IMG/VR virus record: IMGVR_UViG_3300025930_000003
Location: 1 to 55,630 of that record
Reading direction: 5' to 3' (one strand)
DNA length: 55,630 nt
Source of the DNA: a virus
Taxonomy: Duplodnaviria > Caudoviricetes
Shown here: positions 37,353 through 55,630 of the stretch, one piece after another
Layout of the letters: each line of letters opens with the position of its first letter
How positions within the stretch are numbered: the first letter of the stretch is position 1
Made by a program: the position numbers and the translations under genes
Notes under the pieces: generated by a model
Told to the model about the DNA's origin: nothing
Database searches by the model: none
The model's input: only the letters and a program-made list of their open reading frames with translations

Positions 37353-37356
37353 AGCT

Positions 37357-37992: not shown

Positions 37993-37998
37993 CCCGCC

Positions 37999-38651: not shown

Positions 38652-38661
38652 TTAAAAAGAA

Positions 38662-38677
38662 TGGCATAAAAAATGCT
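38662..38677 (+). promoter_or_regulatory. Sigma54-type promoter
   Basis: TGGCATAAAAAATGCT, intergenic just after a stop codon. Confidence 0.65.
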
Positions 38678-39552: not shown

Positions 39553-39775
39553 ATCATTTCTCTCTTCATGCCATAGAATAGTAATTGAAGAAGATGACGG
39601 AAATTTAGATATTTATTGGTGCCGCACAATCAATTTAGGCTATTGCGCACATGGATACTTCAACAATCACACAATAGAACAAGTAGATATTGGAGACAAT
39701 AGATTTTACTTCAATGATGCAAAAGAACTGAAAGATTGCTTCAAAACATCTCAGACACTTACACCAGAAATATGA
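39533..39775 (+). CDS. Early hypothetical protein
   Basis: Overlapping ORF. Confidence 0.6.
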   Translation: MNLQQAKSFLSSCHRIVIEEDDGNLDIYWCRTINLGYCAHGYFNNHTIEQVDIGDNRFYFNDAKELKDCFKTSQTLTPEI

Positions 39776-39999
39776 AAACATTAGATAATCCAAATGAATG
39801 CTACTATCAAGCCGCACAAGAGCTTTATAGAAGAGCACATGAAAGATACGGTGCTACCTATAATTTTGGTGGGCCAGGATACGAAGATAGAATGAAATAT
39901 TGGGAGAACAAAGCATTAGAGTATTTGACTCTATCACATGAATGTCTTAGAGGCAATAAAGAGGCTATATTGAAATTACTCGCTGAACTTGGTTGTTAG
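39772..39999 (+). CDS. Early hypothetical protein
   Basis: ATGA-coupled start. Confidence 0.6.
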   Translation: MKTLDNPNECYYQAAQELYRRAHERYGATYNFGGPGYEDRMKYWENKALEYLTLSHECLRGNKEAILKLLAELGC

Positions 40000-40028
40000 T
40001 CGCACAAGAACTTAACACAACAAACAAT

Positions 40029-40208
40029 ATGAGAAAAATAATTGTTAGCGAAATGAAAGACTTTAGATTCTGCATAGAGTGGTATGAAGATGATGTTTGT
40101 GTTGGCGGAGCATTTAGCACAAAACCAGACTTAATAGAAGAGGATATAAATTTTCTTCTCCATAGAAGTAGACGAGATTACAGAAAACCAGATGAAAACA
40201 TTAAATGA
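40029..40208 (+). CDS. Early hypothetical protein
   Basis: ATG after an A/C-rich leader. Confidence 0.55.
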   Translation: MRKIIVSEMKDFRFCIEWYEDDVCVGGAFSTKPDLIEEDINFLLHRSRRDYRKPDENIK

Positions 40209-40338
40209 TTTTCTCCGCGCATTACTTTTTATCGAACTCGACGCAATTGATAGAGCAATTTCACAGATGAAAAACAAGAAGCGGGCTAAAATGATTAGAA
40301 GAGCATTTAAAAAACAATGGAAATTTAGCCTAAGATAA
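40192..40338 (+). CDS. Small basic early protein (48 aa, not in ORF track)
   Basis: MKTLNDFLRALLF...; fills gap. Confidence 0.45.
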   Translation: MKTLNDFLRALLFIELDAIDRAISQMKNKKRAKMIRRAFKKQWKFSLR

Positions 40339-40378
40339 TTTCCGCACAAATCAATTGTGCGAAAAAGAAAGGAAACAT

Positions 40379-40732
40379 ATGACTGAAAGAAAAATGGCAA
40401 AAGAGATAGCAGATATTCTATCTAACGAACAAGTAACAAAATACGGTGGAACCATTAAGATAACTGGCGCGGAGTCAGTTAAAGAGACCGCACAAGAACT
40501 TTCTTCTCCAACTGTTGAAAAACCACAAGAGCCTAAATATAAGGTTCTTTTCGAATATGACGAACAAGCAGGCAAATGGGAAGTCTATTGTTATGGTGCG
40601 AAAGATGAATATGAAGCACTAGATATGTTTTGTGCGGTTGTTGTTACAGCTAGAAGTGCGATTCCTAGCCAGAACTACAACAAAGCAATCCTAGAGAATG
40701 GCCGATATAAGATAAGTGTAGGTGTTTTATGA
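40379..40732 (+). CDS. Early hypothetical protein
   Basis: AAGGA before ATG 40379. Confidence 0.65.
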   Translation: MTERKMAKEIADILSNEQVTKYGGTIKITGAESVKETAQELSSPTVEKPQEPKYKVLFEYDEQAGKWEVYCYGAKDEYEALDMFCAVVVTARSAIPSQNYNKAILENGRYKISVGVL

Positions 40733-40877
40733 CATTATATGATCTTAAGTTAGAAGAGAAGTATCTTCTAGATAGATTTGTTCGCACAAGTCCGGACAAC
40801 TTAGAAACAATAAATAGAATCTGGAAAAGACTCAGAAAAGTAAAAGAACTAATCGAAGAGAAAATGAAAGTAGCCAA

Positions 40878-41060
40878 ATGAAAACATGGAATCTATCGGA
40901 GAATGGAATCTTAACACTAGAAGAGAATAATGCAGCTATGATTGTGTCTATTGTTCTCTCTAACGAGCAGAAAGCTAAAATACATAAGGAAGTTGATTTA
41001 GCACTAAGAAGAGAGATTGCAAGACAAAGAGAGACATTTAATACTGTCCTTAAACATTGA
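40878..41060 (+). CDS. Early hypothetical protein
   Basis: Packed ORF. Confidence 0.55.
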   Translation: MKTWNLSENGILTLEENNAAMIVSIVLSNEQKAKIHKEVDLALRREIARQRETFNTVLKH

Positions 41061-41072
41061 CCACACAAGAAC

Positions 41073-41285
41073 ATGAAAAAGAAACTACCAATCTATATTG
41101 TTTGGATTCTATTCAATAATAGATATACTTACTTTTCCGCACACTCCTGTTTGAAGGAAGCGACTTCATTCTCAAATAAGTTCCTAAATAGAGATATTCT
41201 ATCTAAAGTTACAGAACATTGGCTAGAACTGGAAAATATTCTTGAGACAACAGATGGAGATTTAATCAAGAATCTAAATCTATGA
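41073..41285 (+). CDS. Early hypothetical protein
   Basis: Packed ORF. Confidence 0.55.
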   Translation: MKKKLPIYIVWILFNNRYTYFSAHSCLKEATSFSNKFLNRDILSKVTEHWLELENILETTDGDLIKNLNL

Positions 41286-41473
41286 AAAAGAAATACATGA
41301 TAGTTATGTTTGATACTGAAACAGGTTTAGTTAAACATCCAGAAGAAATATGGGATAACTATAGACATGTTAGTGCTAGCTTTAAAGACTTATATTCTTC
41401 AGAAGAGTCCGCACTAGAACATGCAACTGAACATGGATTAAGCTATTTCTCTATTATTCCGGTCTACTATTAA
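41282..41473 (+). CDS. Early hypothetical protein
   Basis: ATGA-coupled ORF. Confidence 0.55.
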   Translation: MKKKYMIVMFDTETGLVKHPEEIWDNYRHVSASFKDLYSSEESALEHATEHGLSYFSIIPVYY

Positions 41474-41726
41474 CCGCACAAAGAGACTATTCCGCACAAG
41501 AGCTTTCTTGCACAAAAAGAACAACAAAACAAACATATGAAAAAACATCACGAAGACCTAAAAAGTCTAGTTAAAACTGGACAAATAACAGCAAAAGAAG
41601 CTCTAGATAGATTAATTTCTAGAGCTAAAGATAGCAAACAAGCATCTGAATCAATGACCGCCAGATGGTTAAGAGCTAGAATTTTGACTCACGCAGACAA
41701 CTATAGAACATAGAAAGGAGGTAAAT

Positions 41727-41870
41727 ATGATTCGCCGTATTACATCATTCGGTTATATCTGGTTTAAAGAAGGCAAGCAAGTTGCTTGTCAAGTTGGACA
41801 CAATTGGAATGGAGAGACTCTCTCCATTCAAGAGAAGCGTATTCTTAGGAAACTAGCAAGTAAGAGCTAA
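41727..41870 (+). CDS. 47-aa early protein (not in ORF track)
   Basis: Strong AAGGAGGT RBS; followed by a hairpin. Confidence 0.6.
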   Translation: MIRRITSFGYIWFKEGKQVACQVGHNWNGETLSIQEKRILRKLASKS

Positions 41871-41875
41871 AATGT

Positions 41876-41917
41876 CTGGAGCGGTAACTTCTTACAAACT
41901 ACCGCTTCAGCAATTTT
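41876..41917 (+). terminator. Terminator-like hairpin
   Basis: CTGGAGCGGTA/TACCGCTTCAG then CAATTTT. Confidence 0.5.
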
Positions 41918-41951
41918 AACTCATACCGCACAAGTCAACTATAGAAACATT

Positions 41952-42134
41952 ATGTATAGATTCATTCTTCAATACATTATAGTATCTAGAGAATATGGTT
42001 TCAGACCATATTTTTATGCACTTACTTTCTGTAATAGAATCTCTCTAGAGAATTATAAACAAGATAACACAGTAGCTTTCTATCAATATGATTTAACAGC
42101 GGAAGAGATCGGTCAATTACTAGGAGGAAACTAA
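41952..42134 (+). CDS. Early hypothetical protein
   Basis: 60-aa ORF. Confidence 0.5.
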   Translation: MYRFILQYIIVSREYGFRPYFYALTFCNRISLENYKQDNTVAFYQYDLTAEEIGQLLGGN

Positions 42135-42233
42135 TATGTATAACTTCATTCACAAATATAAAGATCAAGTATTTCTATCTTGGCAAGATGATCTATGGGA
42201 ATGTTGGATTGATGTGCTTTCAGAATGTGGTGA

Positions 42234-42542
42234 ATGGATGACAACAGAAGAAGTAGGACAATACCTTGGAGGAAACTAAAAATGATAAGCAAAGAACTAG
42301 AGATGGCTATAGTTGTTCGCTATAGGGAAATAACACCAAAAGAACAAGCAGAAGAGCTTTTTGACTTCGCACAAAAGCTTACTGAAATAATATCTTCTCA
42401 CGCAACAGAGAAGAAATATTCATCTGCTTCTATGGTTACTTTAATGTATCTTGTTAGCGAAACATTTCATGAACAAGCTAGAGAAAAGATAGAGAAGAAC
42501 GCGGTAGAACTATACAAGAAAATACTAGAAGGAAACAAATGA
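42234..42542 (+). CDS. Early hypothetical protein
   Basis: ORF; true start probably the internal ATG after GGAGG. Confidence 0.55.
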   Translation: MDDNRRSRTIPWRKLKMISKELEMAIVVRYREITPKEQAEELFDFAQKLTEIISSHATEKKYSSASMVTLMYLVSETFHEQAREKIEKNAVELYKKILEGNK

Positions 42543-42769
42543 TAACAGAAGCACATAAACTACAATCCGCACAAATCTTTCTTACTCTTCCAAAAGAGAG
42601 ACAAGATTTAATAGACAACTTCTACAATAAGTTGGGCAAAGAGATACTAGACTTTGTTAGGGAGAACAAGTTAGTAACAGCAGAAATAATTGTTCTTCTA
42701 GATACTTTATCAAGCAAATTTTACGAAGCTCTAGAAGATGATTATAAAGAACATATAAAGAAAAGTTAG
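42539..42769 (+). CDS. Early hypothetical protein
   Basis: ATGA-coupled ORF. Confidence 0.55.
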   Translation: MITEAHKLQSAQIFLTLPKERQDLIDNFYNKLGKEILDFVRENKLVTAEIIVLLDTLSSKFYEALEDDYKEHIKKS

Positions 42770-42788
42770 AGTAAAGATAAAGACCACT

Positions 42789-42804
42789 TGGCACAGTTCT
42801 TGCT
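42789..42804 (+). promoter_or_regulatory. Sigma54 promoter (consensus match)
   Basis: TGGCACAGTTCTTGCT, intergenic. Confidence 0.85.
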
Positions 42805-42958
42805 TACATGGGTCTATCAATTTGCACTTCAAATATTAAAAAGAATGATTTAATTTCCAAAAGGAAAACAGAACCAGTTAAAATTCTCCGCGCGAACATT
42901 TTTAATTGGTTCTGCAACAAAACAAACAAGTAGTTCGCGTAGAAAAGAAAGAAATCCT

Positions 42959-43588
42959 ATGAAGGAATTCGAAGTCAAAGTAAAGAAAGAGATAGAGATA
43001 GAGAAGGAGGTTGACGGTAAGAAAGTTAAGGAGAAAGAGACAGTTGAAACTCCTGTCGCGATTGCGCCTATTAAGGTGCAGAAAGGAAAAGGTAGGGGTT
43101 CAGAATATCTAGCTCCTAAGAACGTCAGCACATTAACATTGAAAGATTTGCTTGCAATGTTTAGTGAAGCAGATCTCGTCAATAAGTTGTTCCGTCCTAA
43201 ATTCAAGCAGTTTTGTGCTACCATCTCGGCGGAAGCCGGGTATGAAGCAGGAAAAAGAACTGCAAGTGATGTGAAAGCGGCTAAAAAGGAAGGAAAAATC
43301 ATCCAAGAATGTGGAATCCAAGATGAGGAGAAATTCTACGACGCATTTAGTCGTATGTTTTCCTCTCTTTCTGCTAGAGGTGAAACTGTTGCTGGATTAA
43401 GCAGACAACAGAATGAACTTCTTGCAGAATTTGGTGATCTGGATGAAAATGCTCCAGACTTCGCAGTTCGTTCTGCTGCGATCTTCAGGGAAATCAAGAA
43501 GATCCGTGAAGCACTTGCTGAAAAGAACACTGAATCAGAAGGTGATGATTCAGAAGAAGAAGGAAAACCAGAAGCGGTTGCTGCTTAA
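42959..43588 (+). CDS. Monocistronic charged protein, unknown function
   Basis: Bracketed by a consensus sigma54 promoter and a terminator; acidic tail. Confidence 0.8.
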   Translation: MKEFEVKVKKEIEIEKEVDGKKVKEKETVETPVAIAPIKVQKGKGRGSEYLAPKNVSTLTLKDLLAMFSEADLVNKLFRPKFKQFCATISAEAGYEAGKRTASDVKAAKKEGKIIQECGIQDEEKFYDAFSRMFSSLSARGETVAGLSRQQNELLAEFGDLDENAPDFAVRSAAIFREIKKIREALAEKNTESEGDDSEEEGKPEAVAA

Positions 43589-43604
43589 ACATCAGCAAAA
43601 CATT

Positions 43605-43641
43605 GAAAGGGAAGTAATTAATTTTACTTCCCTTTCTTTTT
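43605..43641 (+). terminator. Intrinsic terminator
   Basis: 13-bp stem GAAAGGGAAGTAA/TTACTTCCCTTTC plus T run. Confidence 0.85.
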
Positions 43642-43655
43642 CCTTATTTAAATTT

Positions 43656-43838
43656 ATGTGTATAATATTAGATTTAACACAACAAGTAAGTATTAAAGAC
43701 GGATCAGTAGTAGATCAAGTTAATGTGCGAATTGAAGGCAATTTACAAACATTAACTAAAGATCAAATTGATCTTATAGAAGAAAAGTTAGATTGGGCAA
43801 TAGATATATTAGGTTTAAATAATATAAATAAAAGATAA
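43656..43838 (+). CDS. Hypothetical protein
   Basis: Start placed after the terminator. Confidence 0.5.
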   Translation: MCIILDLTQQVSIKDGSVVDQVNVRIEGNLQTLTKDQIDLIEEKLDWAIDILGLNNINKR

Positions 43839-43839
43839 T

Positions 43840-44286
43840 ATGCCGCACAAGAACTCAGAAAGTATTGGAAAATCATTACATTCTGATGGATTACCGCACA
43901 AAGAAATAGAACATAAGGAAATAGATCCAGAAGGTCTAAAACAAGGACTTGGTAGAATAACTAGAGCTAGACCTTTAACCGAAGAAGAGAAAACTTCTCT
44001 AAAGATAAAGAAACAAATTCTAGATATGGGAAAATCTTTTACCCTAAAAAGTAATTCAACTCCTTTTAGTCCAGCACCAGACAAACCAATTGTTGTTATA
44101 AAAGAAATGCAAGACATTACCGCACCAGAAACTGTAGAGATACAGATAAGATCTGATGCTAAAACAATCTGGATAAACATTGACGGAATCTGTAGACTAA
44201 GAGCTTGCCGAATTAAGAACTTAGTCCTAATTGACGAACATTCTAAAAGAACCATAGTATATCCTACAAATGAAACTAGCACTTGA
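43840..44286 (+). CDS. Hypothetical protein
   Basis: 148-aa ORF. Confidence 0.65.
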   Translation: MPHKNSESIGKSLHSDGLPHKEIEHKEIDPEGLKQGLGRITRARPLTEEEKTSLKIKKQILDMGKSFTLKSNSTPFSPAPDKPIVVIKEMQDITAPETVEIQIRSDAKTIWINIDGICRLRACRIKNLVLIDEHSKRTIVYPTNETST

Positions 44287-44617
44287 AAAATTAGAAAAAT
44301 GGGCAGAATCATTACCAGATGACAAGGTAATTGATTTCTTAGATAATAATAATTGTGTTATCTGTCAATTCATAAGAGATACAACAGGAATGGCCGCATC
44401 TGCTAGTGCTACTAATTTCTATGTATATCCTAGTGGTATTTCTCGTGAAGGAGAAGTTATATCTCGAAGAATAGAGCCAGAAATTATTGAAATATTAATT
44501 AAAGCAAGAAATCCTAGTATTGGTGAATATTCAAATGATATAACAAAAGAAAGACTATTAAACGCAATTAGGAAGGTAAAAAATGAATTTACCACAACTA
44601 ACTCTTCCGCTTCTTGA
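44270..44617 (+). CDS. Hypothetical protein
   Basis: Overlapping ORF. Confidence 0.65.
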   Translation: MKLALEKLEKWAESLPDDKVIDFLDNNNCVICQFIRDTTGMAASASATNFYVYPSGISREGEVISRRIEPEIIEILIKARNPSIGEYSNDITKERLLNAIRKVKNEFTTTNSSAS

Positions 44618-45053
44618 TAAGTTTCTCTCACTTAGCATAGGATATAGAGACTATCTAGAAATAGATGATGAGGGAATTCTTAGTCTAGTTTCTATTATTG
44701 ACAACGAAGAGCAACTTTATCATGTAGAAGGAAAGAAAGTCTACAAGAAAAAAGCTTGGCTAAAAGATCTAGATAGACTCGCTCGTTCTAGAAGAGAACA
44801 TGAAGAACTAATGACAATAAAAGATGCCCGCGTTAGAAAATTAAAGGAGCTACAAATTAGACTTTCAGAAGAATTTGGTGTAGATAAGGACAATGAGATA
44901 ATAATTAAGATGGCTCTCAATATAATTAGGCGCGGCAAAGAGAAAACTGCTAATATGTTAGGGGTTGATATAGATAATGTTCCTACTATGCCAAGCAGCT
45001 ACTATATTCTTGACTATCCAACTACTGATGGAACAATGGAGATTAAACTATGA
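44583..45053 (+). CDS. Hypothetical protein
   Basis: Overlapping ORF. Confidence 0.65.
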   Translation: MNLPQLTLPLLDKFLSLSIGYRDYLEIDDEGILSLVSIIDNEEQLYHVEGKKVYKKKAWLKDLDRLARSRREHEELMTIKDARVRKLKELQIRLSEEFGVDKDNEIIIKMALNIIRRGKEKTANMLGVDIDNVPTMPSSYYILDYPTTDGTMEIKL

Positions 45054-45328
45054 AAAGAGATTGCGGAAATGGAGAATTAGTTCCAGTCAAATATGAAGTT
45101 GTCTATTGTGTTGGCGAACATAGCGATGATGAAATTGTGCTAGAACGTAGAACATTTAATGAAGCTAAAGAAGTTTTTCAATCAAAACTTCCAGAGATAC
45201 AAGCTACTCGTTGTAGTAATCTTAGACTATATGCTCTAGATAAACAGGGATATGCTAATTGTATTATATCTTATACACATTGTAAAAATGGAGAAAAAAC
45301 AATAAATGACCGCACAAATGAATTATGA
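45050..45328 (+). CDS. Hypothetical protein
   Basis: ATGA-coupled ORF. Confidence 0.6.
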   Translation: MKRDCGNGELVPVKYEVVYCVGEHSDDEIVLERRTFNEAKEVFQSKLPEIQATRCSNLRLYALDKQGYANCIISYTHCKNGEKTINDRTNEL

Positions 45329-45504
45329 TAGTAAAAATAACAGTAACTGGTAAAATAGTTTCTGACGAACCTATTGAAGCTCAATTAGAACTACCACCTA
45401 ACTGGAATCCAAACATAAAAGAGGTTTTCATAGTTAAAGGAGCAATATCTAGATTAGTAGACGAACTAAGTGAACATTTCCCTAAAATAAGTGGATAGAC
45501 TATT

Positions 45505-47757
45505 ATGTCAAGAAAAGCTAAAGTAAAAGTAATTACTCTAGAAGATGAGATAAAGAAACTTATTCCTTGTCTTAATCAAGCGAAGTCTAGGTTCTCCTTT
45601 CACAAAGAGGAAAGAACCTATGGCTTTCTCGCACTAAACTTTGGTATAACAATAAAAGATCCAGTTTTAAAGAACAGACCAATAGTCTTTGAAGATATCA
45701 ATTTGTTTCATAGTCAGTTAATAGTTAGATTAAAGGATAAATATGACATCAGAAAATACATCGGTGATAGAAAAGTTGAAGTGCTTGAGGGAAGTAGTGA
45801 GCCACAAGGAGAAATGGGGGGAAATATTGGAATTATCCCCAGCGGAGAAAGAAGCGATACTCCAGAAGCACATGACAGCGAGAATGTTAGTAGAGAAGTA
45901 TCTAGGATTGAAAAGAAAGATGAAGAAGTCAAAGAGATTGATAGCTTCACACTTGAAGAAAGAAATAAAGAAACGGAATCGCACTTTGATTCGATATTTG
46001 TTGCTAAGTGGCCAGATCAGAAAGCTAACTTACTGAAGCAAAAAGATGGTTGTGAGCAACTAGAGACTGCCCGCAAACTTTTTAATGAGATCTGGTATAA
46101 TCTTAAACCAGGTTTCTTGTTAAATGCTCAAACTGGAGCAGGAAAAACTTACATAGTCGGTTCCGTAATAAAGAATCTACTAAATCATGGACTATTAGAG
46201 AAGGCTAGATGTATTAGTCCAATACCGATTGCTTACATTACTAAAACTTCTATTGTAGAACAGACAGAGAATGATGTTCTAAAAGAGGCTTTCAATCTAG
46301 ATGTTGTCAACACAGTTCATGTTTTCAACATAGAGACTCTTCGATCTAAGTTTGGTAAGTTGTTCGTAAAGGAACGAATTAACGTAGTCAATGGACAAGA
46401 GACTATAGAATATGAATGGAATCCTAACATTGTTCCATGTCTCTTTATCTGGGACGAATGTCAGATTCTAGCTAGAGAAGAATCTATTCAGTCCAAGATA
46501 GCACAAGCAGTTAGCAGGGTGAAGAATAAAACTATTATTCAAATCTTTATGTCAGCTACTCCATTTTCCCGCGTTTACGAAGCTAGATGTTTCGCTGTAG
46601 CTACTCATACTACATTCTTTTTCGGTATGGGAGAAGTAGAACTTACTGATAGAAACTGGAAACAGTTCTCTCATCAAATTGCTGCGCCATCAGATCCAAT
46701 GGATTATTGTGAAGCAGCTATTAAGAGATTTGTAGAAAAAATGGATCCTTATATTCTACGAATTAAGAACATAAGGCCAAAACATAGAGCCTTCAATGGT
46801 GTAAGCAAGATATTCTTCAGAACAGACGAAGAGAGGCTTGAATATGAGACAGCTTGGGAACGATATCAAAAAGAGAAAGCGAAGATAGAAGAAGAGTCTC
46901 TTAGGACAGGAGAAGGTTCCTATTTCCAGCTTTTAGCACAATTGACTATTATGAGAAAAGCTGCTGAAAAATGCAGACGTTATCATCTAGCAGAATTTAT
47001 GCACAAAAGTTGGTTAGCTGGTAAAGCTCCTGTATGCGTTGTCGCTTTCAAAGGAACAATTACTGGAGCATATAGAATTCTAGTAGAAGATTATGGTTGG
47101 TGCCGCGACGATGTTTCAATCATTTGGGGTGGTTCAGTAGAGTCAATGAATCTGAAGAAGAAAGTAGGATTGAAGATCAAGAACAATAAAGCTTTCCAGG
47201 AAGCAATGAAGGAAGCGGACATTGATTTACAAGAACTTGGTTTCGATCTAGAGAATCTAGAAGTTAAGACAGAAGAGCAGATAGCTTTTGAGAAGCTACA
47301 TAATCTTCTCACACAAGATCCAGAGTCAAGAGAGAAAGAGAGAATAAGATTCCAGAAGCAGAAATCCAGAGGATTATTCTTAACCTTTAAATCTGGTGGA
47401 GTAGGACTTTCTGCACACCATCAATATCCTGAAGCAAAACAGAGAGAAACACTATTAACTCCTGTCTATTCAGAAAAGGAACTTGTTCAAGGTTTAGGAC
47501 GTTGTCCTAGAATTACTTCTTTAACAGACACATATCAATTCATGTGCTACTATGTAGGAACAATTGAGGAAGCGGTTGCACAAAGAGTTGTTATGAAGTT
47601 GAAGAATCTTAAGCATGTAGTTAAGATGAAAGAGGCTTGGGAAGATATATTTACAGGGAAGAAAGTTCAACTCAAGCAAGATGATGAAGAAACTATGGAT
47701 ATGGTAGATGAATTTGAAGGTGGTAACTCAATGCTAGAATATGTGGAGGAAAAATAA
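45505..47757 (+). CDS. Superfamily 2 helicase
   Basis: AQTGAGKT, DECQ, SATP, SGGVGLS, QGLGR-x-x-R. Confidence 0.85.
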   Translation: MSRKAKVKVITLEDEIKKLIPCLNQAKSRFSFHKEERTYGFLALNFGITIKDPVLKNRPIVFEDINLFHSQLIVRLKDKYDIRKYIGDRKVEVLEGSSEPQGEMGGNIGIIPSGERSDTPEAHDSENVSREVSRIEKKDEEVKEIDSFTLEERNKETESHFDSIFVAKWPDQKANLLKQKDGCEQLETARKLFNEIWYNLKPGFLLNAQTGAGKTYIVGSVIKNLLNHGLLEKARCISPIPIAYITKTSIVEQTENDVLKEAFNLDVVNTVHVFNIETLRSKFGKLFVKERINVVNGQETIEYEWNPNIVPCLFIWDECQILAREESIQSKIAQAVSRVKNKTIIQIFMSATPFSRVYEARCFAVATHTTFFFGMGEVELTDRNWKQFSHQIAAPSDPMDYCEAAIKRFVEKMDPYILRIKNIRPKHRAFNGVSKIFFRTDEERLEYETAWERYQKEKAKIEEESLRTGEGSYFQLLAQLTIMRKAAEKCRRYHLAEFMHKSWLAGKAPVCVVAFKGTITGAYRILVEDYGWCRDDVSIIWGGSVESMNLKKKVGLKIKNNKAFQEAMKEADIDLQELGFDLENLEVKTEEQIAFEKLHNLLTQDPESREKERIRFQKQKSRGLFLTFKSGGVGLSAHHQYPEAKQRETLLTPVYSEKELVQGLGRCPRITSLTDTYQFMCYYVGTIEEAVAQRVVMKLKNLKHVVKMKEAWEDIFTGKKVQLKQDDEETMDMVDEFEGGNSMLEYVEEK

Positions 47758-48229
47758 TATGGCAAAAGTATTAGATAATAAAGAAGTTCTTGATAAAATC
47801 TTATCTAGAATTGTTCCACATCTTAATGGATGTTGGATATATCATGGAACTTTTGATGAATATGGTTATGCTAGAATAAGACATAGATATAAATATTGGA
47901 GAGTTTCTAGATTAATATACAAACTAACCTTTCCTAAACTATATAAAGAAGAATTAAATACTTTACATAAATGTGACAATCCAGCATGTGTTAATCCAGA
48001 ACATTTATTTCAAGGAACTCAGGCTGATAATATAGAAGATATGATAAGTAAAGGCAGACATAGTATAGAGGGTAGAGCTAAAGCATTTTTAACTGAAGAC
48101 CAAGTTAGAGAAATCAGAAGTTTAATTAAACAAGGAGTAAAGCAAATAGATATAGCGAAAAGATTTGATGTAACAGACTCAATTATTTCAAATATAAATA
48201 AGAATAGAATTCATAGAAATGTTATATGA
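47741..48229 (+). CDS. HNH endonuclease with C-terminal HTH
   Basis: GCW, HKCDNPACVNPEHL, NIEDM, IAKRF-x-V. Confidence 0.9.
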   Translation: MWRKNNMAKVLDNKEVLDKILSRIVPHLNGCWIYHGTFDEYGYARIRHRYKYWRVSRLIYKLTFPKLYKEELNTLHKCDNPACVNPEHLFQGTQADNIEDMISKGRHSIEGRAKAFLTEDQVREIRSLIKQGVKQIDIAKRFDVTDSIISNINKNRIHRNVI

Positions 48230-49122
48230 TAACTCAATTTCGTCCAATGTTAGCATACGGTCTTTGTGAGGAAGATTTAAAAAGCTTGAAGTTCCCATTG
48301 ATTCTACAACCTAAGCTTGATGGCGTGCGCTGTTGTATTGTAGAAGGTAAAGCACTATCAAGAAAGCTAAAAAGAATTCCTAATAGATATATTAGAACTA
48401 AACTGGAAGCCTTTAAAAATAAACCACCAGTTTTAATAGATGGTGAGTTGGTTATTCAAGGTAAAACATTTAACGAAATACAATCAGCCATAATGAGTGA
48501 GGATGGAGAACCTAACTTTAGATATATAATCTTTGATGCACTTAATGAATGGAGTAATGAATCTTATATACATAGAAAGCAATTTCTAGATTATAGTCTA
48601 GAATACACAAACAACCTATTCTTTGTTAGTGATGTAACTTTAGATCAGTATGAAAAGCTAGATGAGTGGGAACAATATATTCTAAAAGATGGACATGAAG
48701 GTATCATTTTAAGAGATCCTTTCTCACCATATAAGTTCGGTCGTTCCACTCTAAGAGAACAATCACTTCTAAAATTCAAACGCTTTAACGATTCTGAAGC
48801 GGTAATCATTAGCTCTAATGAACTAATGACAAACTCTAACATACTAGAAACTGACGAACTAGGATATGCTAAACGATCTAGTGCCGCAGCTAACTTAATA
48901 AGAACTTGTCAGCTTGGTAGCTGGACTGTGAAAGACATTAACATTAATTCCAGATTCTATAATGTAGAGTTTAACGTAGGAAGTGGATTTACTTTAGAGC
49001 AAAGAATAAAGTTCTGGAATACAAAACAAGATGGGAAAATAATAACCTATAAGTATCAGGCACATGGAAGTAAAGATAAACCTAGGAGTCCAATTTGGTT
49101 AGGGTTTAGAAAGGATATATGA
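48226..49122 (+). CDS. ATP-dependent DNA ligase
   Basis: PMLA, KLDGVR, DGEL, FD, EGIILR, LLK-x-K, VGSGF. Confidence 0.92.
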   Translation: MITQFRPMLAYGLCEEDLKSLKFPLILQPKLDGVRCCIVEGKALSRKLKRIPNRYIRTKLEAFKNKPPVLIDGELVIQGKTFNEIQSAIMSEDGEPNFRYIIFDALNEWSNESYIHRKQFLDYSLEYTNNLFFVSDVTLDQYEKLDEWEQYILKDGHEGIILRDPFSPYKFGRSTLREQSLLKFKRFNDSEAVIISSNELMTNSNILETDELGYAKRSSAAANLIRTCQLGSWTVKDININSRFYNVEFNVGSGFTLEQRIKFWNTKQDGKIITYKYQAHGSKDKPRSPIWLGFRKDI

Positions 49123-49343
49123 GTGAACTAACAACATGCAATTATTGTAATTTAAGGTGGATAAAAGATAGAGCGAAAAAAGAGAAAAAGAAAGTAACAA
49201 AGCTTCCAACTTCTCAAGGACTTGGTGGATTTGAGATCTTTGTTCATCCAAAAGAGATAGATATAAAGAAACTTTCCAAGAAAGAAAGAACTAAATACTT
49301 CAGCTCTTGGATGTGGGAAATAACAGATCATTGTGTTTGCTAA
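49119..49343 (+). CDS. Small Cys-rich protein
   Basis: CNYC and terminal HCVC. Confidence 0.6.
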
Positions 49344-49350
49344 AAATAAT

Positions 49351-50202
49351 ATGATATACGGAAAAGAGAACTACAAGATGAACAATAACAATGCAGAGTT
49401 GCAGAAAAAGCTTCTAAGAGCAGAAGAACTTCTTAGAAATACAGGAAATGATTCCTATATAAGAGAACTTAAAGAGCAACTTGGTAAGTCGAATACAGAA
49501 CAGTGGCTTAGCAAGTTTGTCACAAAGTCCAATTCGATGACGAAATTGAAGGAGCAAGTTAGAAAGCTAACTCCAATAGATGATCCAGTATTAATATTTG
49601 GTGAAACAGGAACAGGAAAAGAACTATTAGCTCATGCACTTCAAGGAGATAGAAAAGGAGCTTTCGTAGCAATTAATTGTGCTGGATTACCTGCACAGCT
49701 AATGGAAAGTGAACTATTTGGTCATGAGAAAGGATCTTTTACTGGAGCGGTAACTGAAAAGATTGGTCTAATGGAGGAAGCACAAAATGGAACTATATTT
49801 CTAGATGAAATAGGTGATCTTGCAATAGAGATGCAAGCGAAACTTCTAAGAGCAATTCAGGAGAAATCCATTAGAAGAGTTGGAGCGAAAGAAGAAATCG
49901 CCATTAATTGTAGAATTGTTTCTGCAACACATAGAAATCTAGAGGAATGGGTAGAAAAAGATAAGTTTAGAGAGGACTTATTCTACCGCATTAGCACTTT
50001 TGTCTTGAAGCCTACACCGCTTAGGACTAGGTCAGCAGATTTACCTCTAATACTCGCCTATCTTGATAGAGATGAATGCGAGATAGAAGATTATAATGAG
50101 TTCGCAAAGAAGATTGATATAGAAAAACTAAAAGGTAATGTTCGTTCGCTTCAGCAAATCTATCGTAGATTTGTAGTTCTTGGACTTGAACCACATGAAT
50201 AA
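49351..50202 (+). CDS. Sigma54-dependent activator (bEBP AAA+ core) lacking sensor and HTH domains
   Basis: [56 protein letters not shown]; ends about 17 aa later; start uncertain (49351 or 49378). Confidence 0.93.
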
Positions 50203-50205
50203 AAT

Positions 50206-50418
50206 ATGATAAGACTAACAATAGAAATAAATTCAAATCCAGGTATAATTCCTGGATATATTAACTGTAAGAAAGAATCAAGGAAAGCTACAATAATAGA
50301 AGAGGATCTTGAATCTAGAATAAAAGATCTTTGTGAAGCTTTTCTAGCTAGATTTGGTGATCCTCTTGAAAAGGCAAAGAATATGGGACTAATAAAGGAA
50401 ACTAAACAAATCAAATGA
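50206..50418 (+). CDS. Hypothetical protein
   Basis: Packed ORF. Confidence 0.55.
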   Translation: MIRLTIEINSNPGIIPGYINCKKESRKATIIEEDLESRIKDLCEAFLARFGDPLEKAKNMGLIKETKQIK

Positions 50419-50609
50419 ATGCACTATTGCTAGGCCCCTATACAACTGGAGACGAAGCATGTTTTGCTTACCATATCTTTATGAACAAGTGTCATAAAGC
50501 TAACTTAGTAATTCCATCAGAACTTAATTTGACAGAAGAGAAGAAGAAAGAGATAGAAGGAAATATAGATAAGCTAATAGAGAAAGAGAAAAGAACGAAA
50601 TGGAACTGA
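50415..50609 (+). CDS. Hypothetical protein
   Basis: ATGA-coupled ORF. Confidence 0.55.
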   Translation: MNALLLGPYTTGDEACFAYHIFMNKCHKANLVIPSELNLTEEKKKEIEGNIDKLIEKEKRTKWN

Positions 50610-50776
50610 TATGACTGACGAAAGATACCACGATATAATGAACAACGATCTAGAGCTAACTCAAGAAGAATTTAATGAAGGATGGCATTTCTGTTTTGAG
50701 TGGGATGGACTACTTCGTAATAACAAGGAAGAAGATTTCAAATGCACCTGTTTAGAGGATAAAAGTTAAAATAGAA

Positions 50777-50792
50777 TGGCATACTTCTTGCT
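50777..50792 (+). promoter_or_regulatory. Sigma54 promoter for the recombination/replication operon
   Basis: TGGCATACTTCTTGCT, intergenic. Confidence 0.85.
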
Positions 50793-50848
50793 TAGTTCCC
50801 ATGTCAATTTGCATTTTTTCTCTTTTAGTATAGTAAAATTATATTCTT

Positions 50849-51526
50849 ATGGATCCGTCACAAACACCAGACAATGAAGATAAATTAGCAGGAGCTACAA
50901 AAGAGCAGCTTTTAGAAATGGTGAAGGGATTCAAAGAGATGATGACTGTCCCTTCTGTAAGAGATAGAATTTCTGGCGGCAATAAGATAGAAAGAAAGAT
51001 AGATAAAGGAGGATATTTCAACGAAAAAGAAGCTAAAGGAATGATTCCTATTCTAGATGGAATCGCAGAAGATAAACAAACTAGAGAATTTCGATATGAC
51101 GATTATCCTTTCTGGGCACCTAACACAATATGGGCCAAGATAAATCAGTCTATTAAATATCTAGTAGAAGTTCTAGATGTAGAAGGTAAATACAATGATA
51201 TAAGACATTGTATAAGAATCTCCAAAGGAGACACAGGTGTTTTACTTCAGTGGGTTAATAACCCAATTCTTCAACAAGGTGGATGGATTGTTCATAAGAC
51301 AGCAGATACTCCTACTGTAGTTATAGAGAACTACAAGACCAGAGTATTGAAGTTTATGGAAGAATCTAATCCAGAAGATATGCTAGATATAAAGGAAAAT
51401 CTAAATCTAACACCAGACGAGATACAATATTTCAAAGGTCTATTTGAGGCTTCACCAGTTTTCATGGCTTACGTATCAACCAACAGGATAAAAATAGTCC
51501 ACACGAAAGAAAAATCAGATGAATAA
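50849..51526 (+). CDS. Hypothetical protein
   Basis: 225-aa ORF directly after the promoter. Confidence 0.75.
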   Translation: MDPSQTPDNEDKLAGATKEQLLEMVKGFKEMMTVPSVRDRISGGNKIERKIDKGGYFNEKEAKGMIPILDGIAEDKQTREFRYDDYPFWAPNTIWAKINQSIKYLVEVLDVEGKYNDIRHCIRISKGDTGVLLQWVNNPILQQGGWIVHKTADTPTVVIENYKTRVLKFMEESNPEDMLDIKENLNLTPDEIQYFKGLFEASPVFMAYVSTNRIKIVHTKEKSDE

Positions 51527-51809
51527 AACACAAACATTAAAGTATTGGCGCATAGCTGACGACAAAAAATCCCTAATTCTGTTACCAAGCAAAGTAGGTC
51601 TGGAGATAATTAAGACCGCATTAGACAAACAAGCCTTTACTGAGACAGTAGAAACTATAGGTAAGTCAAGTCTAATCGCTCTGAAAGTTGAGTTCACTTC
51701 TGAGTGGAAGTATGTAGAGTATAAGGTAGGTATCTCAAACTTAGTAAGTCTCTATATCTTCTTCCACGATGAGTCCAAGTTCTACCTAACATTCGCTTAT
51801 GAAGTTTGA
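51519..51809 (+). CDS. Hypothetical protein
   Basis: Overlapping ORF. Confidence 0.6.
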   Translation: MNKTQTLKYWRIADDKKSLILLPSKVGLEIIKTALDKQAFTETVETIGKSSLIALKVEFTSEWKYVEYKVGISNLVSLYIFFHDESKFYLTFAYEV

Positions 51810-51988
51810 TTATGTTAATAATGAAATGCGATAATTGTCATCTGGAATTTGAACCTAAAGCTACTTTTGATATAAAAGTAGAATCCAGAAGTAAAGAATT
51901 TCCAGATAGAACTGTATTTTGTCTAGAATTGTGCGAAGAGTGTGCTAATAAAGTAATTCTAGATTTGAAAAATTACTGTTCAATATGA
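51806..51988 (+). CDS. Small zinc-finger protein
   Basis: CDNC and CEEC pairs. Confidence 0.6.
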   Translation: MIMLIMKCDNCHLEFEPKATFDIKVESRSKEFPDRTVFCLELCEECANKVILDLKNYCSI

Positions 51989-52218
51989 CTCTAGAACAGT
52001 TACTAAATAATACACCAGAAAATCTAGAGAAGCTGGGAGATAAGGAACTGAATGAAATACTTCTTCCTTATTTCCCAACTACTAGACCTGAGGCAGCTAA
52101 AATAAAAGAGGCTTCTAGAATTGTTGGACACAAATCAAAGCAGGCTGATCTTGAGTTTAACATAAAGTTCAAGAAAGCTCAAGTACTAGCGAAATCATTT
52201 GGAATTGATCTGAAATGA
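51985..52218 (+). CDS. Hypothetical protein
   Basis: ATGA-coupled ORF. Confidence 0.65.
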   Translation: MTLEQLLNNTPENLEKLGDKELNEILLPYFPTTRPEAAKIKEASRIVGHKSKQADLEFNIKFKKAQVLAKSFGIDLK

Positions 52219-52390
52219 ATAATCTAGAAGAAGCACATAAAGATTTCGTAGGGTATATTGAAGATATAATAGCTAAAAGAGAGCTAACAAAAGAAGAGAA
52301 GGCAGCTATTAAAATAAAACTTCAATACTGGCATAAGATAGAAAACCTTTCCTACAAAGAACAGACTTTCGCAGAAAAGTTCTTTCATCT

Positions 52391-53350
52391 ATGAATAAAA
52401 CACTAGTAGTTCTAGATAGTTCCGCATTCAGCAATTCTGCTTGTATGCTAAATTTGTTTAGAACAGTTGTCCAAGGTTACACAAGCAAGCTGCAAAATAA
52501 TGATGTGGAATTCGGAACTGCATTTCATAAGTTTAGGAAAATCTTTAGAGATAAGGGTGAAAATGGATTAGCCGAAGGCATCAAAGAAGCTAAAGATTAC
52601 TTCGTTAATACTCCGATGATTATAAAGTCCAATAAGACCTACCTAACATCTACTTTTCTAATGCGAGTCTGTCTAGAGTATGCGGAGAAATATAATAAGA
52701 GTCTTTTCAACGTGATTAGAATAGAAAAAGCTATAGGAGAATATGAGGCACTCCTAGAACTAAGGTTCGCTTTCCCATATTATGTAGACGATGAAATGGA
52801 AATCTTAATGGCAGGAACGATAGATGAACTAGGAAAGCACAATAATGGAATAGTATGTATCTGTGATGCGAAAACTACTAGCATGTGGAAAATAAGAGAC
52901 TATTTCAATTCCTATGAACTTAAATGTCAGCTAAGATTTTATAAGTGGGCTTTGCTTAAATATGCTACTATGTATCCAAATAGCTTCATAGCTGATCTAT
53001 GCAAGAATGAAATAGGTTGCTTTATTGATGGTATCTTCTACAAAGGAGCAGAAGGAGATATAGAATACAAGTGGTCTGATGTTATGCTCTTTCAAGATGA
53101 TCCTGGTATGGTTCTGATGGACACTTTGATCTACTCTAAAGTAAGTAGACTAATAACTGCAATCAAAAATTGGAGAAGGGAGAGAATGACTCCTCTCCGC
53201 GAAGGAATATTAATCAATGCCTGTGAGAATCCATTTGGCCCCTGTAGATATTCTAAAGTATGTTCAGCAGTAGATAATACAACTAGAGATGTTATGCTAG
53301 AATACAATTTCATACAGCGTCCATACAATCCGATGAATCATGGTGAGTAG
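52391..53350 (+). CDS. PD-(D/E)XK exonuclease (Cas4/RecB-like)
   Basis: FGTAFH, E-x-x-F, GTID, DAKT, QL-x-x-Y, C-terminal Cys cluster. Confidence 0.85.
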   Translation: MNKTLVVLDSSAFSNSACMLNLFRTVVQGYTSKLQNNDVEFGTAFHKFRKIFRDKGENGLAEGIKEAKDYFVNTPMIIKSNKTYLTSTFLMRVCLEYAEKYNKSLFNVIRIEKAIGEYEALLELRFAFPYYVDDEMEILMAGTIDELGKHNNGIVCICDAKTTSMWKIRDYFNSYELKCQLRFYKWALLKYATMYPNSFIADLCKNEIGCFIDGIFYKGAEGDIEYKWSDVMLFQDDPGMVLMDTLIYSKVSRLITAIKNWRRERMTPLREGILINACENPFGPCRYSKVCSAVDNTTRDVMLEYNFIQRPYNPMNHGE

Positions 53351-53355
53351 ATATT

Positions 53356-54135
53356 ATGCACATACCAACAGTAGCACAAAACTTAAAGACTCAGAAGTTT
53401 CCACAAATTCGTCTTGGACTACAAGGTGCTCCTTGCACTGGTAAAACTACATCCGCATTAACATTTCCTAACATAACAGTAATAGACTGTGACAATGGCC
53501 TTACTAGATTCTCTGGCTGTGATGTAGCTTATGTTCCAATCTATGATGCTGAATGGGTAGAGAAATATGGTTATCCACCTAAGAAAACAGGGGCACAGCC
53601 TAATAGAAGGGATGCGGTATTGAAATTTCTTAGAGAAGAGGCACTAAAAATGACAAGTGAACAGACACTTTTTCTCGATAGCTGGACTTCGCTTCAGACA
53701 TTCTTTGATCAACAGCAAGAACTAGAGCCTAAGTTGACTAAAGAGGGAAAGATAGACGATTTCGATTTTTGGGCTAAGAAGATAGAATATAGTGAGAAGT
53801 TGATGGTCTATCTATGTTCACTCAAATGTCATGTAGTTGTATCTTTCCATGAAATGTCCATTAGAGATCCTAAATCAGGTCAGCTTCTAGAAAAACTTGC
53901 TCCTTTAATGCAGGGTAAGTTTCTTGCACAGATTAAGAAGTGGTTTACAGATTTCTTTAGGATGGTTGTAGAGGAAGAGCAAGATAAGACAGGAAAAGTA
54001 GTCAAATCTAATTACTATTGGCAAGTCTGTTCTGATAACCAGTTCGACAGCAAAACAAGACTATCTTTTCCTGAGGGAACATTTAAAGTGAAGCCAGATT
54101 TTAGTGTGTTTAGTCAGTATGAAAGGAAAGTATGA
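53356..54135 (+). CDS. Sak4-like (AAA_24) ATPase/recombinase
   Basis: G-x-P-x-TGKTT, ID-x-D-x-G, LDS-x-T, HE, K-x-R; next to the exonuclease. Confidence 0.8.
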   Translation: MHIPTVAQNLKTQKFPQIRLGLQGAPCTGKTTSALTFPNITVIDCDNGLTRFSGCDVAYVPIYDAEWVEKYGYPPKKTGAQPNRRDAVLKFLREEALKMTSEQTLFLDSWTSLQTFFDQQQELEPKLTKEGKIDDFDFWAKKIEYSEKLMVYLCSLKCHVVVSFHEMSIRDPKSGQLLEKLAPLMQGKFLAQIKKWFTDFFRMVVEEEQDKTGKVVKSNYYWQVCSDNQFDSKTRLSFPEGTFKVKPDFSVFSQYERKV

Positions 54136-54401
54136 TAACTAGAAAGCCAGATTATAAAGTATCTGCTTTGAATAAAAGAACAGAATGTAAGGGGCCAATT
54201 GGAGCAGCTTGGATAAATGAAGATAAGACTATTTCTGTGATTCTGGATGAATTTATTTCTCTAGCACAAGATGGTCATTTACTTATTACTTTGTTTCCTG
54301 CCGAATTCAAATCTAAAAGAAAGAAAAACTCATACAATAGTTATACAGAAAACCCGCCAGTTGAAGAACCAGTAGAAGAAATACATGACAGACCATTCTA
54401 A
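54132..54401 (+). CDS. Small protein with IGAAW motif (SSB-like)
   Basis: IGAAW-x-N, acidic tail ending PF. Confidence 0.6.
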   Translation: MITRKPDYKVSALNKRTECKGPIGAAWINEDKTISVILDEFISLAQDGHLLITLFPAEFKSKRKKNSYNSYTENPPVEEPVEEIHDRPF

Positions 54402-54404
54402 AAT

Positions 54405-54539
54405 ATGAAACTAGAAATAGAAGTAGATGAGATTGCTGTAGTTTGTATAATTATTACAGCTATAGTAACTATAATTTTCGCAGCTTCTTGCGAGAAAGAA
54501 AAAATAAAACATCCAGAGTATTGGAACCAATCAAGATGA
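54405..54539 (+). CDS. Small putative lipoprotein (44 aa, not in ORF track)
   Basis: Hydrophobic stretch ending FAASC; ATGA overlap with next gene. Confidence 0.5.
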   Translation: MKLEIEVDEIAVVCIIITAIVTIIFAASCEKEKIKHPEYWNQSR

Positions 54540-54913
54540 ACAACATACTATCATTCTACATCGCTGGTCTATCTTTTAGGCCAGAAAAAGATCAAGAAGT
54601 AATCAAAACTGGGCTAGCATTGCTTTTAGAAGCGGAACCAGATAATCCTTATGACAACAATGCTATTAAGTTGGTTACTTTTGACGATCCAAGAATCCAT
54701 GTAGGATATGTTCCTAAGAAGCAGACGAAAGAACTCCATCCATATAGAATAGCTGAGATACCAGTTTTCACTGTGGTAGCAAATCATATTCCTGAGATGC
54801 CATCACACAAGAGAGTTCTAGTTACAGTTAAGTCAGAGCAAGAACTACCAAGATTTATTCCTGAAGAGAAGGAATTCAAAAATTTCCTCTGTCAAAAAGC
54901 GATAGAGGAATAA
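54536..54913 (+). CDS. HIRAN-domain protein
   Basis: AG-x-x-FR, EPDNPYDNNAI, VGYVP. Confidence 0.85.
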   Translation: MNNILSFYIAGLSFRPEKDQEVIKTGLALLLEAEPDNPYDNNAIKLVTFDDPRIHVGYVPKKQTKELHPYRIAEIPVFTVVANHIPEMPSHKRVLVTVKSEQELPRFIPEEKEFKNFLCQKAIEE

Positions 54914-54947
54914 CAAAACAAAAACAACAAAACAAAAACAAAAACAT

Positions 54948-55511
54948 ATGGCATTACTAAAACAATCGAAGGAAGCAGTGCTTGCAGTGCCCCCGGCCTT
55001 CAAAGATCGTTGTGTAGTTCGTTGCACAGATCACAAGTTTGGGCCAAATAGCAATGATGCTCCAATGATTACGTGCAATTGGGAACTCTGTGGTATTCCT
55101 AATGCAACAGGTGGAGTAGAAACCAAGATGGAAAGGGCTGGAAAACTCTATCAGCTTGCTGGTTTGAGAATCAAGCCTATTTACTTCACTCTAACCCAGA
55201 AGGCAATTGATAGCTTCTTTGCTGAGTTCTGGTGCAAAGCAAATAAGGAAAAAGAGTTCCTTGGTATCGACACAGAGAATCCAGATTGTGACTTTCTGGA
55301 TTCTCTCTGTATGGAAGCAATCGTAAGTGGCTTTACTCAAGAAGAAAGAAAGCAACTTACAGATGAAGAGAAAGAAGCACTCAAGGCTGAAGGAAAACAA
55401 CCCATTGGTGAACCAATTACAGATGGTGATGGTGAACCCATTGTCAAGACTGTATTGAACGTAACCATGTGGCTTAAGAAGTTTGAAGGTGAAGTCCCTA
55501 CGCCTTTCTAA
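54948..55511 (+). CDS. Putative single-stranded DNA-binding protein
   Basis: OB-like strands, acidic tail ending PF, in the Sak4/exonuclease module. Confidence 0.55.
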   Translation: MALLKQSKEAVLAVPPAFKDRCVVRCTDHKFGPNSNDAPMITCNWELCGIPNATGGVETKMERAGKLYQLAGLRIKPIYFTLTQKAIDSFFAEFWCKANKEKEFLGIDTENPDCDFLDSLCMEAIVSGFTQEERKQLTDEEKEALKAEGKQPIGEPITDGDGEPIVKTVLNVTMWLKKFEGEVPTPF

Positions 55512-55531
55512 GTAGTTTATGGACGGTATGT

Positions 55532-55630
55532 GCCTCATAAGCCATAGATTTTATGAAACAGAGCTTATCACTCTATAACTATCTGAACAATAGGACATTT
55601 AATCGGGTAGCTGATAACTACTTCCGTCCA
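55532..55630. repeat. Terminal copy of bases 1-99
   Basis: Exact match. Confidence 0.95.

Follow-up and report, generated by a model that had tools for sequence, protein, structure and literature searches.

A phage-borne AAA+ protein as a candidate self-sufficient activator of host sigma-54 RNA polymerase

Why would a bacterial virus carry an activator of sigma-54 RNA polymerase, and which promoters would such a protein serve? The question is raised by one gene (49351–50202, plus strand) in the genome of an uncultured tailed phage from soil (Duplodnaviria; Caudoviricetes), IMG/VR record IMGVR_UViG_3300025930_000003, of which we analysed the whole stretch of 55,630 nucleotides (the window). 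According to the available text of a 2020 review (PMC7175178), the closed complex of the sigma-54 holoenzyme cannot open without ATP hydrolysis by a ring of a bacterial enhancer-binding protein (bEBP), whose GAFTGA L1 loop touches region I of sigma-54 and the −12 DNA. The phage gene encodes a 283-residue protein that consists of a bEBP-like AAA+ core with, at its N-terminus, a helical extension of some 55 residues that varies among relatives, and the same genome carries six −24/−12 promoter-type sites. Our computational inference, to which we give a probability of roughly three in four (0.77), is that the phage encodes a self-sufficient activator of host sigma-54 RNA polymerase that fires the phage's own −24/−12 promoters.

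The activator protein

The reading frame begins with an ATG at 49351. An alternative GTG start at 49333 would add six residues, giving a 289-residue reading; the ATG is favoured because a 99%-identical database protein of 283 residues exists and because the deletion joint of a strain variant falls exactly at 49351. The Pfam family Sigma54_activat (PF00158) matched the protein with an E-value of 5.9e-63 and 212 bits (cut-off 20.2), from residue 63 to residue 225 of the 289-residue reading and over positions 2–167 of the 168 in the profile. A preliminary description of this DNA had placed a bEBP AAA+ core with all catalytic motifs at 49351–50202, and the profile match together with the motif coordinates confirmed it. 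The Walker A motif GETGTGKE lies at 49600–49623, with K90 invariant in 24 of 24 family members, and the Walker B motif FLDE at 49798–49809, with D152 and E153 invariant in all 24 rows of the family alignment. Equally invariant (24/24 rows) were R207 and R213 of the arginine-finger region FREDLFYR (49966–49989) and N263 and R265 of the sensor II motif GNVR (50134–50145). The sigma-54 contact motif of the L1 loop, GSFTGA, occupies precisely the positions given for it earlier, 49732–49749, and is preceded by ESELFGH at the computed coordinates 49705–49725; all of these motifs are on the plus strand. Within the loop F130 is invariant, and T131, G132 and A133 are each present in at least 90% of rows. 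Serine stands here in place of alanine, most relatives in the 24-row alignment having GAFTGA.

The preliminary description had further claimed that receiver, GAF, PAS and helix-turn-helix (HTH) domains are absent, and had named as a check a profile search positive for Sigma54_activat and negative for HTH_8 and Response_reg. This is what we found: neither HTH_8 nor Response_reg, GAF or PAS matched the activator in Pfam at E ≤ 1, the other matches being overlapping generic AAA families. The best NCBIfam matches were all bEBPs and were confined to their central domains, and the PHROG match was phrog_7998, which is annotated 'unknown function'. The protein ends 18 residues beyond GNVR. At its other end, the extension differs in length and sequence across the clade of phage relatives described below and includes a clade-specific WLxxFIT motif.

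Structural comparisons gave the same picture. Thirty-four Protein Data Bank (PDB) sequences matched the activator at E ≤ 1e-30 (FlrA, FleQ, NtrC1/4, ZraR, PspF, LuxO and others), nearly all of them bEBP AAA+ cores. An AlphaFold model built from the 24-row family alignment had a mean predicted local distance difference test score (pLDDT) of 90.2; the score fell below 50 at residues 1–12 alone and remained below 75 until about residue 40, a region modelled as helices; low-confidence helices make up roughly the first 45 residues. The best Foldseek matches of the model were the AAA+ domains of NtrC4, FleQ, NtrC1, LuxO, FlrC and PspF, with an E-value of 3e-24 to NtrC4 and FleQ and a target-normalised template-modelling score of about 0.8 for chains that consist of the AAA+ domain only. 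The protein thus has every sequence feature of a bEBP AAA+ core and, in the predicted model, its fold. As judged from its sequence, it lacks both of the other parts of a classical three-domain bEBP, the Fis-type HTH and the N-terminal regulatory domain (receiver, GAF, PAS or V4R), and an AAA+ core alone is what defines the FleT-like class. By analogy it would work like a bEBP, yet it would not literally be 'enhancer-binding'.

Sigma-54-type sites in this genome and in its relatives

Six exact matches to TGGCAY-N6-TGCT were present in the window, whereas 100 dinucleotide-preserving shuffles yielded 0.11 on average and at most one. The final T of the pattern was added after the sites had been seen, and without it the count is still six. 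All six matches are intergenic. They lie in five gaps longer than 60 bp of an open reading frame (ORF) map on which non-coding DNA makes up 3170 of 55630 bases, and each is aimed at downstream genes. In each of them, GG and GC are separated by exactly ten bases (GG-N10-GC). Two sites are on the minus strand: 28138–28153 occupies a gap of 282 bp in front of the probable major capsid gene, and 37014–37029 heads the entire leftward arm of packaging and virion genes. The plus-strand sites are 37357–37372, before a cassette gene of higher GC content (37552–37992); 38662–38677, before a block of small genes (38939–42769); 42789–42804, a perfect TGGCAC-N5-TTGC situated 155 nt before a 209-aa gene (42959–43588); and 50777–50792, which is 575 bp past the activator stop and 57 nt before a 225-aa gene. 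This last gene heads the exonuclease/Sak4/polymerase/primase arm.

Some further features of the individual sites may be recorded here. The two most consensus-like sites share TCAATTTGCA at 13–14 nt past the −12 element (42817–42826 and 50804–50813), and TTCTTGCTTA is likewise common to the 42789 and 50777 sites; the other four sites have neither TCAATTTGCA nor TTCTTGCTTA. A 41-codon ORF at 36878–37003 (minus strand) has its ATG 12 nt past the C of the −12 GC of the 37014–37029 site, and a transcript with the usual start distance would therefore be leaderless or nearly so. The gene at 37552–37992 encodes 146 residues with no Pfam match; the surrounding stretch (37373–38030) has 47% GC in a genome of 35% GC, a strong terminator hairpin stands behind the gene at 37999–38029, and the site at 37357 is its own. 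It looks like an acquired cassette under phage sigma-54 control.

Homologues of the activator have the same short form. Among the best 120 of 8000 scored homologues in a protein search, all are 262–359 aa long, and none contains a receiver Pfam family or the HTH family PF02954, which is present in many longer bEBPs. The contigs that carry these 120 measure at most 54,643 bp, and for 21 homologues the contig is 47.9–54.7 kb long, the size of a phage genome. No relative among proteins of at least 497 aa exceeded 50% identity, and none in GTDB, sampled at one genome per species, exceeded 51%. Because the longer and the GTDB relatives reach no more than 50–51% identity, the short form has not arisen by recent truncation from any cellular gene in the sample.

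The gene and the sites occur together across this clade. IMG/VR was scanned with the family alignment; 278 stretches encoded a relative and 80 loci were kept. In the 82 viral loci analysed (1.26 Mb in total), TGGCAY-N6-TGC gave 167 sites compared with 15 matches to the control, which was the site pattern read backwards, and at least one site was present in 74 of the 82 loci. The preliminary description had named related phages carrying the gene without the promoter motifs as a result that would refute it. The outcome was the opposite: each of the eight near-complete relatives had 6–9 exact sites, compared with 0–1 for the reversed control. Site density was 0.145 per kb in the short-form loci, compared with 0.029 per kb in eight viral contigs with a bEBP of at least 344 aa and 0.047 per kb around cellular bEBP genes. 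The positions left free in the motif follow the sigma-54 consensus, with T before TGGCA in 64%, G after TGGCAY in 68% and T after TGC in 92%. By the ORF maps, 102 of 148 sites in the relatives fall in the 10.9% of the DNA that is non-coding, and for 103 of the 148 a gene in the same orientation starts no more than 400 bp away.

Most telling of all is the conserved position of one site directly behind the activator. A same-strand site lies no more than 70 bp past the activator stop in 48 of 65 testable, distinct short-form loci and no more than 600 bp past it in 57 of 65 (55/72 and 64/72, respectively, when duplicates are kept). No such site was found with the reversed pattern (0/65), on the opposite strand (0/65) or in the long-form loci (0/7). 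The 50777 site is this positionally conserved site in our genome, and in one strain variant homology to the genome resumes at 50773, 4 nt before it. A second site in the relatives is typically 4–7 kb upstream of the activator, before a gene of 150–220 aa that precedes the helicase operon, and the 42789 site is its equivalent here. In some relatives (for example L098) there is no gap between that gene and the operon with the activator at its end; in this genome a hairpin (43605–43636) and a 251-bp gap separate the 209-aa gene from the activator operon.

The activator also groups with other phage proteins in a maximum-likelihood tree of 81 AAA+ cores. Its rows were this phage, 32 phage short forms, 40 of 79 cellular loci and all eight long-form proteins from viral contigs; every second distinct short form (230–339 aa) and every second cellular locus had been taken, the cellular sample being the nearest matches. 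One branch, with a Shimodaira–Hasegawa-like approximate likelihood-ratio support of 99, has on one side 40 of 40 cellular cores, seven long forms and one short form (L137), and on the other 32 of 33 phage short forms, this phage included, together with one protein of 355 aa. One of those 32 short forms (L107) branches next to the main phage group rather than within it. This topology speaks for one separate lineage of phage proteins, which may but need not stem from a single capture. The loci of the clade range from 28 to 51% GC, and on this basis the clade probably spans many hosts.

A separate group of IMG/VR contigs (L007, L118, L124, L143, L152 and L162) encodes bEBPs of 495–692 aa, shows no enrichment of sites and groups with cellular bEBPs. 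Three of the six have 59–70% GC (L007, L118, L137-like). These contigs are probably cellular DNA or unrelated elements.

The genome, its host and other transcription signals

The record (positions 1–55,630) is a complete virus: it has direct terminal repeats, and IMG/VR estimates its completeness at 100%. A 99-bp repeat at 1–99, with its second copy at 55532–55630, was found independently in the sequence. On the plus strand, from about 37.5 kb to the end and then from 1 to 7 kb, PHROG matches identify replication and recombination genes: a helicase, an HNH endonuclease, an ATP-dependent ligase, an exonuclease, a Sak4-like annealing protein and a primase. A DNA polymerase is present in two pieces, both rightward, with positions 566–942 and 969–1239 of phrog_17 matched by the ORFs at 788–2266 and 3347–4411 and several small ORFs between them. 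The minus strand from 36,854 down to 7,040 forms the packaging and virion arm, which is marked by the large terminase subunit at 32530–34245 (minus strand; Terminase_6C E-value 2.4e-4, just under the cut-off; about 30% identity to annotated terminases at E 4e-39 in tblastn) and contains a 2449-aa ORF. The gene at 26702–27988 (minus strand) is the probable major capsid gene, on a weak lead from an Atlas search. A DUF5662 protein (E 2.8e-35) is encoded at 35448–35987 (minus strand), among the first genes of this arm. None of the ten virion-arm proteins tried against PHROGs received a name, the replication genes alone being named, and for most proteins of the arm there was no PHROG match; searches of the genome for a tyrosine integrase and for tRNA genes gave neither.

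The activator is the genome's one PF00158 gene. It is the last sizeable gene of a packed plus-strand run (43840–50769) that also holds the helicase, the HNH endonuclease and the ATP-dependent ligase and is probably one operon. The terminator-like hairpin at 43605–43636 (plus strand; 13-bp stem and T run) stands between the first gene behind the 42789 site and this operon, and three small ORFs (50206–50769) separate the activator gene from the 50777 site. Identical and variant copies of the genome's DNA are present in other samples, on contigs of four DNA runs. In a contig of another run, 49120 is joined to 49351 with two other letters between, so that the 74-aa ORF upstream of the activator is absent, and the small ORFs at 50206–50769 differ among other variant contigs. 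The small genes on both sides of the activator are a variable zone.

No cultured relative was found when 25 kb were compared with a phage collection by megablast, and tblastn of the probable capsid protein against that collection gave no match. With the activator, tblastn returned 66 records, all below 60% identity; among the records listed, many are bacterial assemblies or bacterially annotated genes. An Atlas search with the 225-aa gene behind the 50777 site gave no usable match, and no close relative of the activator was found in the GTDB genomes.

Metagenomes from rhizosphere and soil, produced in several studies, contain near-identical DNA, and one homologue is labelled as coming from a Blattabacteriaceae metagenome-assembled genome. 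A Shine-Dalgarno-like GGAG, GAGG or AGGA was present in the 19 bases before the start of 21 of 89 ORFs, compared with 10.7 by chance, and the ORF leaders are A-rich. By these two sequence measures the predicted translation starts are Bacteroidota-like. Together, the few Shine-Dalgarno motifs, the 35% GC of the genome, the soil and rhizosphere runs and the Blattabacteriaceae-labelled homologue suggest a host in the Bacteroidota.

The preliminary description had also stated that no phage RNA polymerase or sigma factor is recognisable, and hidden Markov model searches agreed. Sigma54_DBD, Sigma70_r2 and Sigma70_r4_2 had no match in the six-frame genome, and neither did the T7-type family RNA_pol, although this last result is a weak negative in that the profile matched no control genome. 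A single intergenic match to a Bacteroidota-type housekeeping promoter was found, TTTG-N22-TAAATTTG at 38758–38791. It stands between the 38662 site, which it follows by approximately 100 bp, and the small-gene block, and is a candidate early promoter.

The proposed switch, its alternatives and known systems

In the switch that we propose, the activator would assemble into the usual bEBP ring. With no repressing N-terminal domain it would be active once made, whatever the signals in the cell, and with no HTH it would meet closed complexes of sigma-54 holoenzyme and promoter from solution, opening promoters by ATP hydrolysis through its GSFTGA loop. Its action would extend to all closed complexes of the sigma-54 holoenzyme in the cell. 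That neither a signal nor an enhancer would be needed follows from the core-only anatomy and from the precedent of DctD250, and the terms 'constitutive' and 'enhancer-independent' are applied to the phage protein by analogy on these two grounds. DctD250, comprising residues 141–390 of Sinorhizobium meliloti DctD, is reported to be constitutive and promiscuous, acting without an enhancer from solution at promoters of different regulons, and, at the glnK promoter, to fall about tenfold short of activated NtrC, the cognate activator, at its enhancer (PMC3844500, available text).

As judged from gene order, the activator gene would close one transcription unit and open the next. The helicase–ligase operon (43840–50769) would first yield the activator, which would then turn on the 50777 operon of recombination and replication genes, turn on the leftward packaging and virion arm through the 37014–37029 site, boost the capsid block through the 28138–28153 site and fire three further rightward units. 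Positive feedback would arise if transcription from the 42789 site reads through into the activator operon. The first activator molecules may come from a weak housekeeping promoter, from read-through or from a host activator.

Several points weigh against this proposal. RpoN in the host is an assumption. Among the 24 listed sequencing runs with matching sequence none is RNA, and the promoters are predicted from DNA alone. The contact loop departs from GAFTGA at one residue, and in three of the six sites the −12 element is GTGC or ATGC rather than TTGC. Eight of the 65 distinct relatives have no site within 600 bp past the activator, and an exact site is entirely absent from four of 74 short-form loci, of which three are short fragments or have the gene at a contig end. 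No promoter that first expresses the activator was identified in scans for sigma-70 and Bacteroidota boxes: sigma-70 consensus sites were not enriched in 36000–55630 (61 compared with 67.6 expected), and the Bacteroidota −7 box TAnnTTTG was not enriched in the gaps (3/81). The ORF maps are crude longest-ORF maps, and the tree was a quick one, unrooted and subsampled.

A different division of labour is conceivable, in which the activator would form mixed rings with a DNA-binding host bEBP, as FleT does with FleQ and HrpR with HrpS, and the phage promoters would be enhancer-dependent through the host partner. FleT, which has neither a regulatory nor a DNA-binding domain, is reported to act in complex with the DNA-binding FleQ (PMC7175178 and PMC7277832, available text). 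Any such partner would have to be a host protein, the phage having a single Sigma54_activat gene, and the divergent region between the 37014 and 37357 sites (625 bp) is long enough for binding sites. However, no 8–10-base k-mer clearly common to the upstream DNA of the six promoters was found, and the k-mers shared by three or four promoters include the two divergent promoters, whose upstream windows overlap. A clade that presumably infects many hosts, given its 28–51% GC, fits poorly with one specific partner, and an AAA+ core alone was sufficient in the DctD250 experiments (PMC3844500). We consider mixed rings unlikely.

The gene might instead serve mainly to force on the sigma-54 regulon of the host, which in Flavobacterium comprises chaperones, proteases and envelope-stress genes, with the phage sites being secondary or served by host activators. 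A core without accessory domains should be promiscuous, and in Flavobacterium psychrophilum a mapped sigma-54 promoter class heads groES-groEL, dnaK, grpE-dnaJ, lon, clpB and htpG (PMC9723704, available text); if the host is Flavobacterium-like, one may speculate that a promiscuous activator would raise these chaperone and protease genes too. Yet the gene and the phage sites are tightly linked, with one site fixed directly behind the gene, which would be unexpected if the phage promoters were incidental. As a replacement for phage promoter firing, host takeover is therefore quite improbable in our judgement. The two roles are not exclusive: a promiscuous activator that fires phage promoters should also switch on the host sigma-54 regulon, and deregulation of the host RpoN regulon is plausible.

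We give very little credence to a misleading resemblance, in which the motifs would serve another phage factor or the protein would have drifted to a function unrelated to sigma-54: sites and protein function are predictions from sequence, half of the sites have a non-canonical base before the GC at −12, and the phage ATPase Htm shows that the bEBP fold can be redeployed (bioRxiv 10.64898/2026.10.06.757011, available text), but the L1 loop, both Walker motifs, the arginine fingers and sensor II are kept across the clade, the unconstrained bases of the DNA motif match the sigma-54 consensus, and no site departs from the GG-N10-GC spacing.

The self-sufficient switch therefore remains our preferred reading. 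Sigma-54 is the one bacterial system without basal leak, the polymerase being locked at the promoter until an ATPase opens it. If the reading is correct, an ATPase and promoters of its own would give the virus a tight switch independent of host signals. A bolder version, which we regard as possible though doubtful, is that the whole, widespread clade of 48–55 kb tailed phages has replaced a sigma-70 programme with a self-contained sigma-54 switch that includes feedback, in which the activator, encoded at the end of an early operon and immediately before a sigma-54 promoter, would turn on the replication, packaging and capsid operons; the clade would also have commandeered the host chaperone and protease regulon (GroEL, DnaK, Lon and ClpB in Bacteroidota) for virion folding. 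Being small, apparently constitutive and enhancer-independent, proteins of this kind would be attractive as orthogonal expression parts, and phage activators would also be attractive for revealing sigma-54 regulons in little-studied phyla.

Among known systems, the closest in architecture is FleT of Rhodobacter (Cereibacter) sphaeroides, likewise a natural AAA+-core bEBP without a regulatory or DNA-binding domain, and the only known bEBP lacking both according to the available text of the 2020 review (PMC7175178). The at least 100 homologues of 262–359 aa would enlarge that set from FleT alone. FleT is chromosomal and acts in a flagellar cascade with FleQ, whereas the phage protein is viral and the sole bEBP of its genome. 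In the tree, which did not include FleT, the phage protein and the sampled cellular cores are on separate branches. DctD250 and PspF(1-275) have the same AAA+-only architecture, and PspF AAA+ cores were among the structural matches, but both are laboratory truncations, whereas the phage form is natural and kept by selection, and its N-terminal extension is specific to the clade.

Helicobacter FlgR and Chlamydia CtcC activate without an enhancer. Both are listed without a DNA-binding domain in Table 1 of the review (PMC7175178); HTH-less like the phage protein, they have a receiver domain and phosphorylation control, whereas the phage protein has no receiver.

More distant parallels are found among phages. 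T4 gp55/gp33 and SPO1 gp28 follow the same logic, in which an earlier phage product redirects the host RNA polymerase to the promoter class of later genes. They are sigma factors of the sigma-70 family or co-activators; in contrast, the phage described here would supply an ATPase activator and borrow the sigma-54 of its host. Htm (Gp204) of an Escherichia coli phage is, like our protein, a phage bEBP-like ATPase, but by the available text it has neither the GAFTGA loop nor the motif (bioRxiv 10.64898/2026.10.06.757011), whereas the L1-loop motif is present here. In Pseudomonas phage YuA, one sigma-54-like promoter was confirmed by mapping (PMC10914365); this is a single promoter rather than a genome-wide set, and the available text of that report mentions no phage activator.

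The preliminary description had held that no characterised phage works in this way. That view needs qualification for YuA, which uses a sigma-54-like promoter apparently without an activator of its own; of a phage-encoded bEBP with matching promoters we found no published description in the full-text literature, a search that left most subscription journals uncovered. The machine itself is known, and what is new is to see it carried by a virus, without accessory domains and linked to a set of viral promoters.

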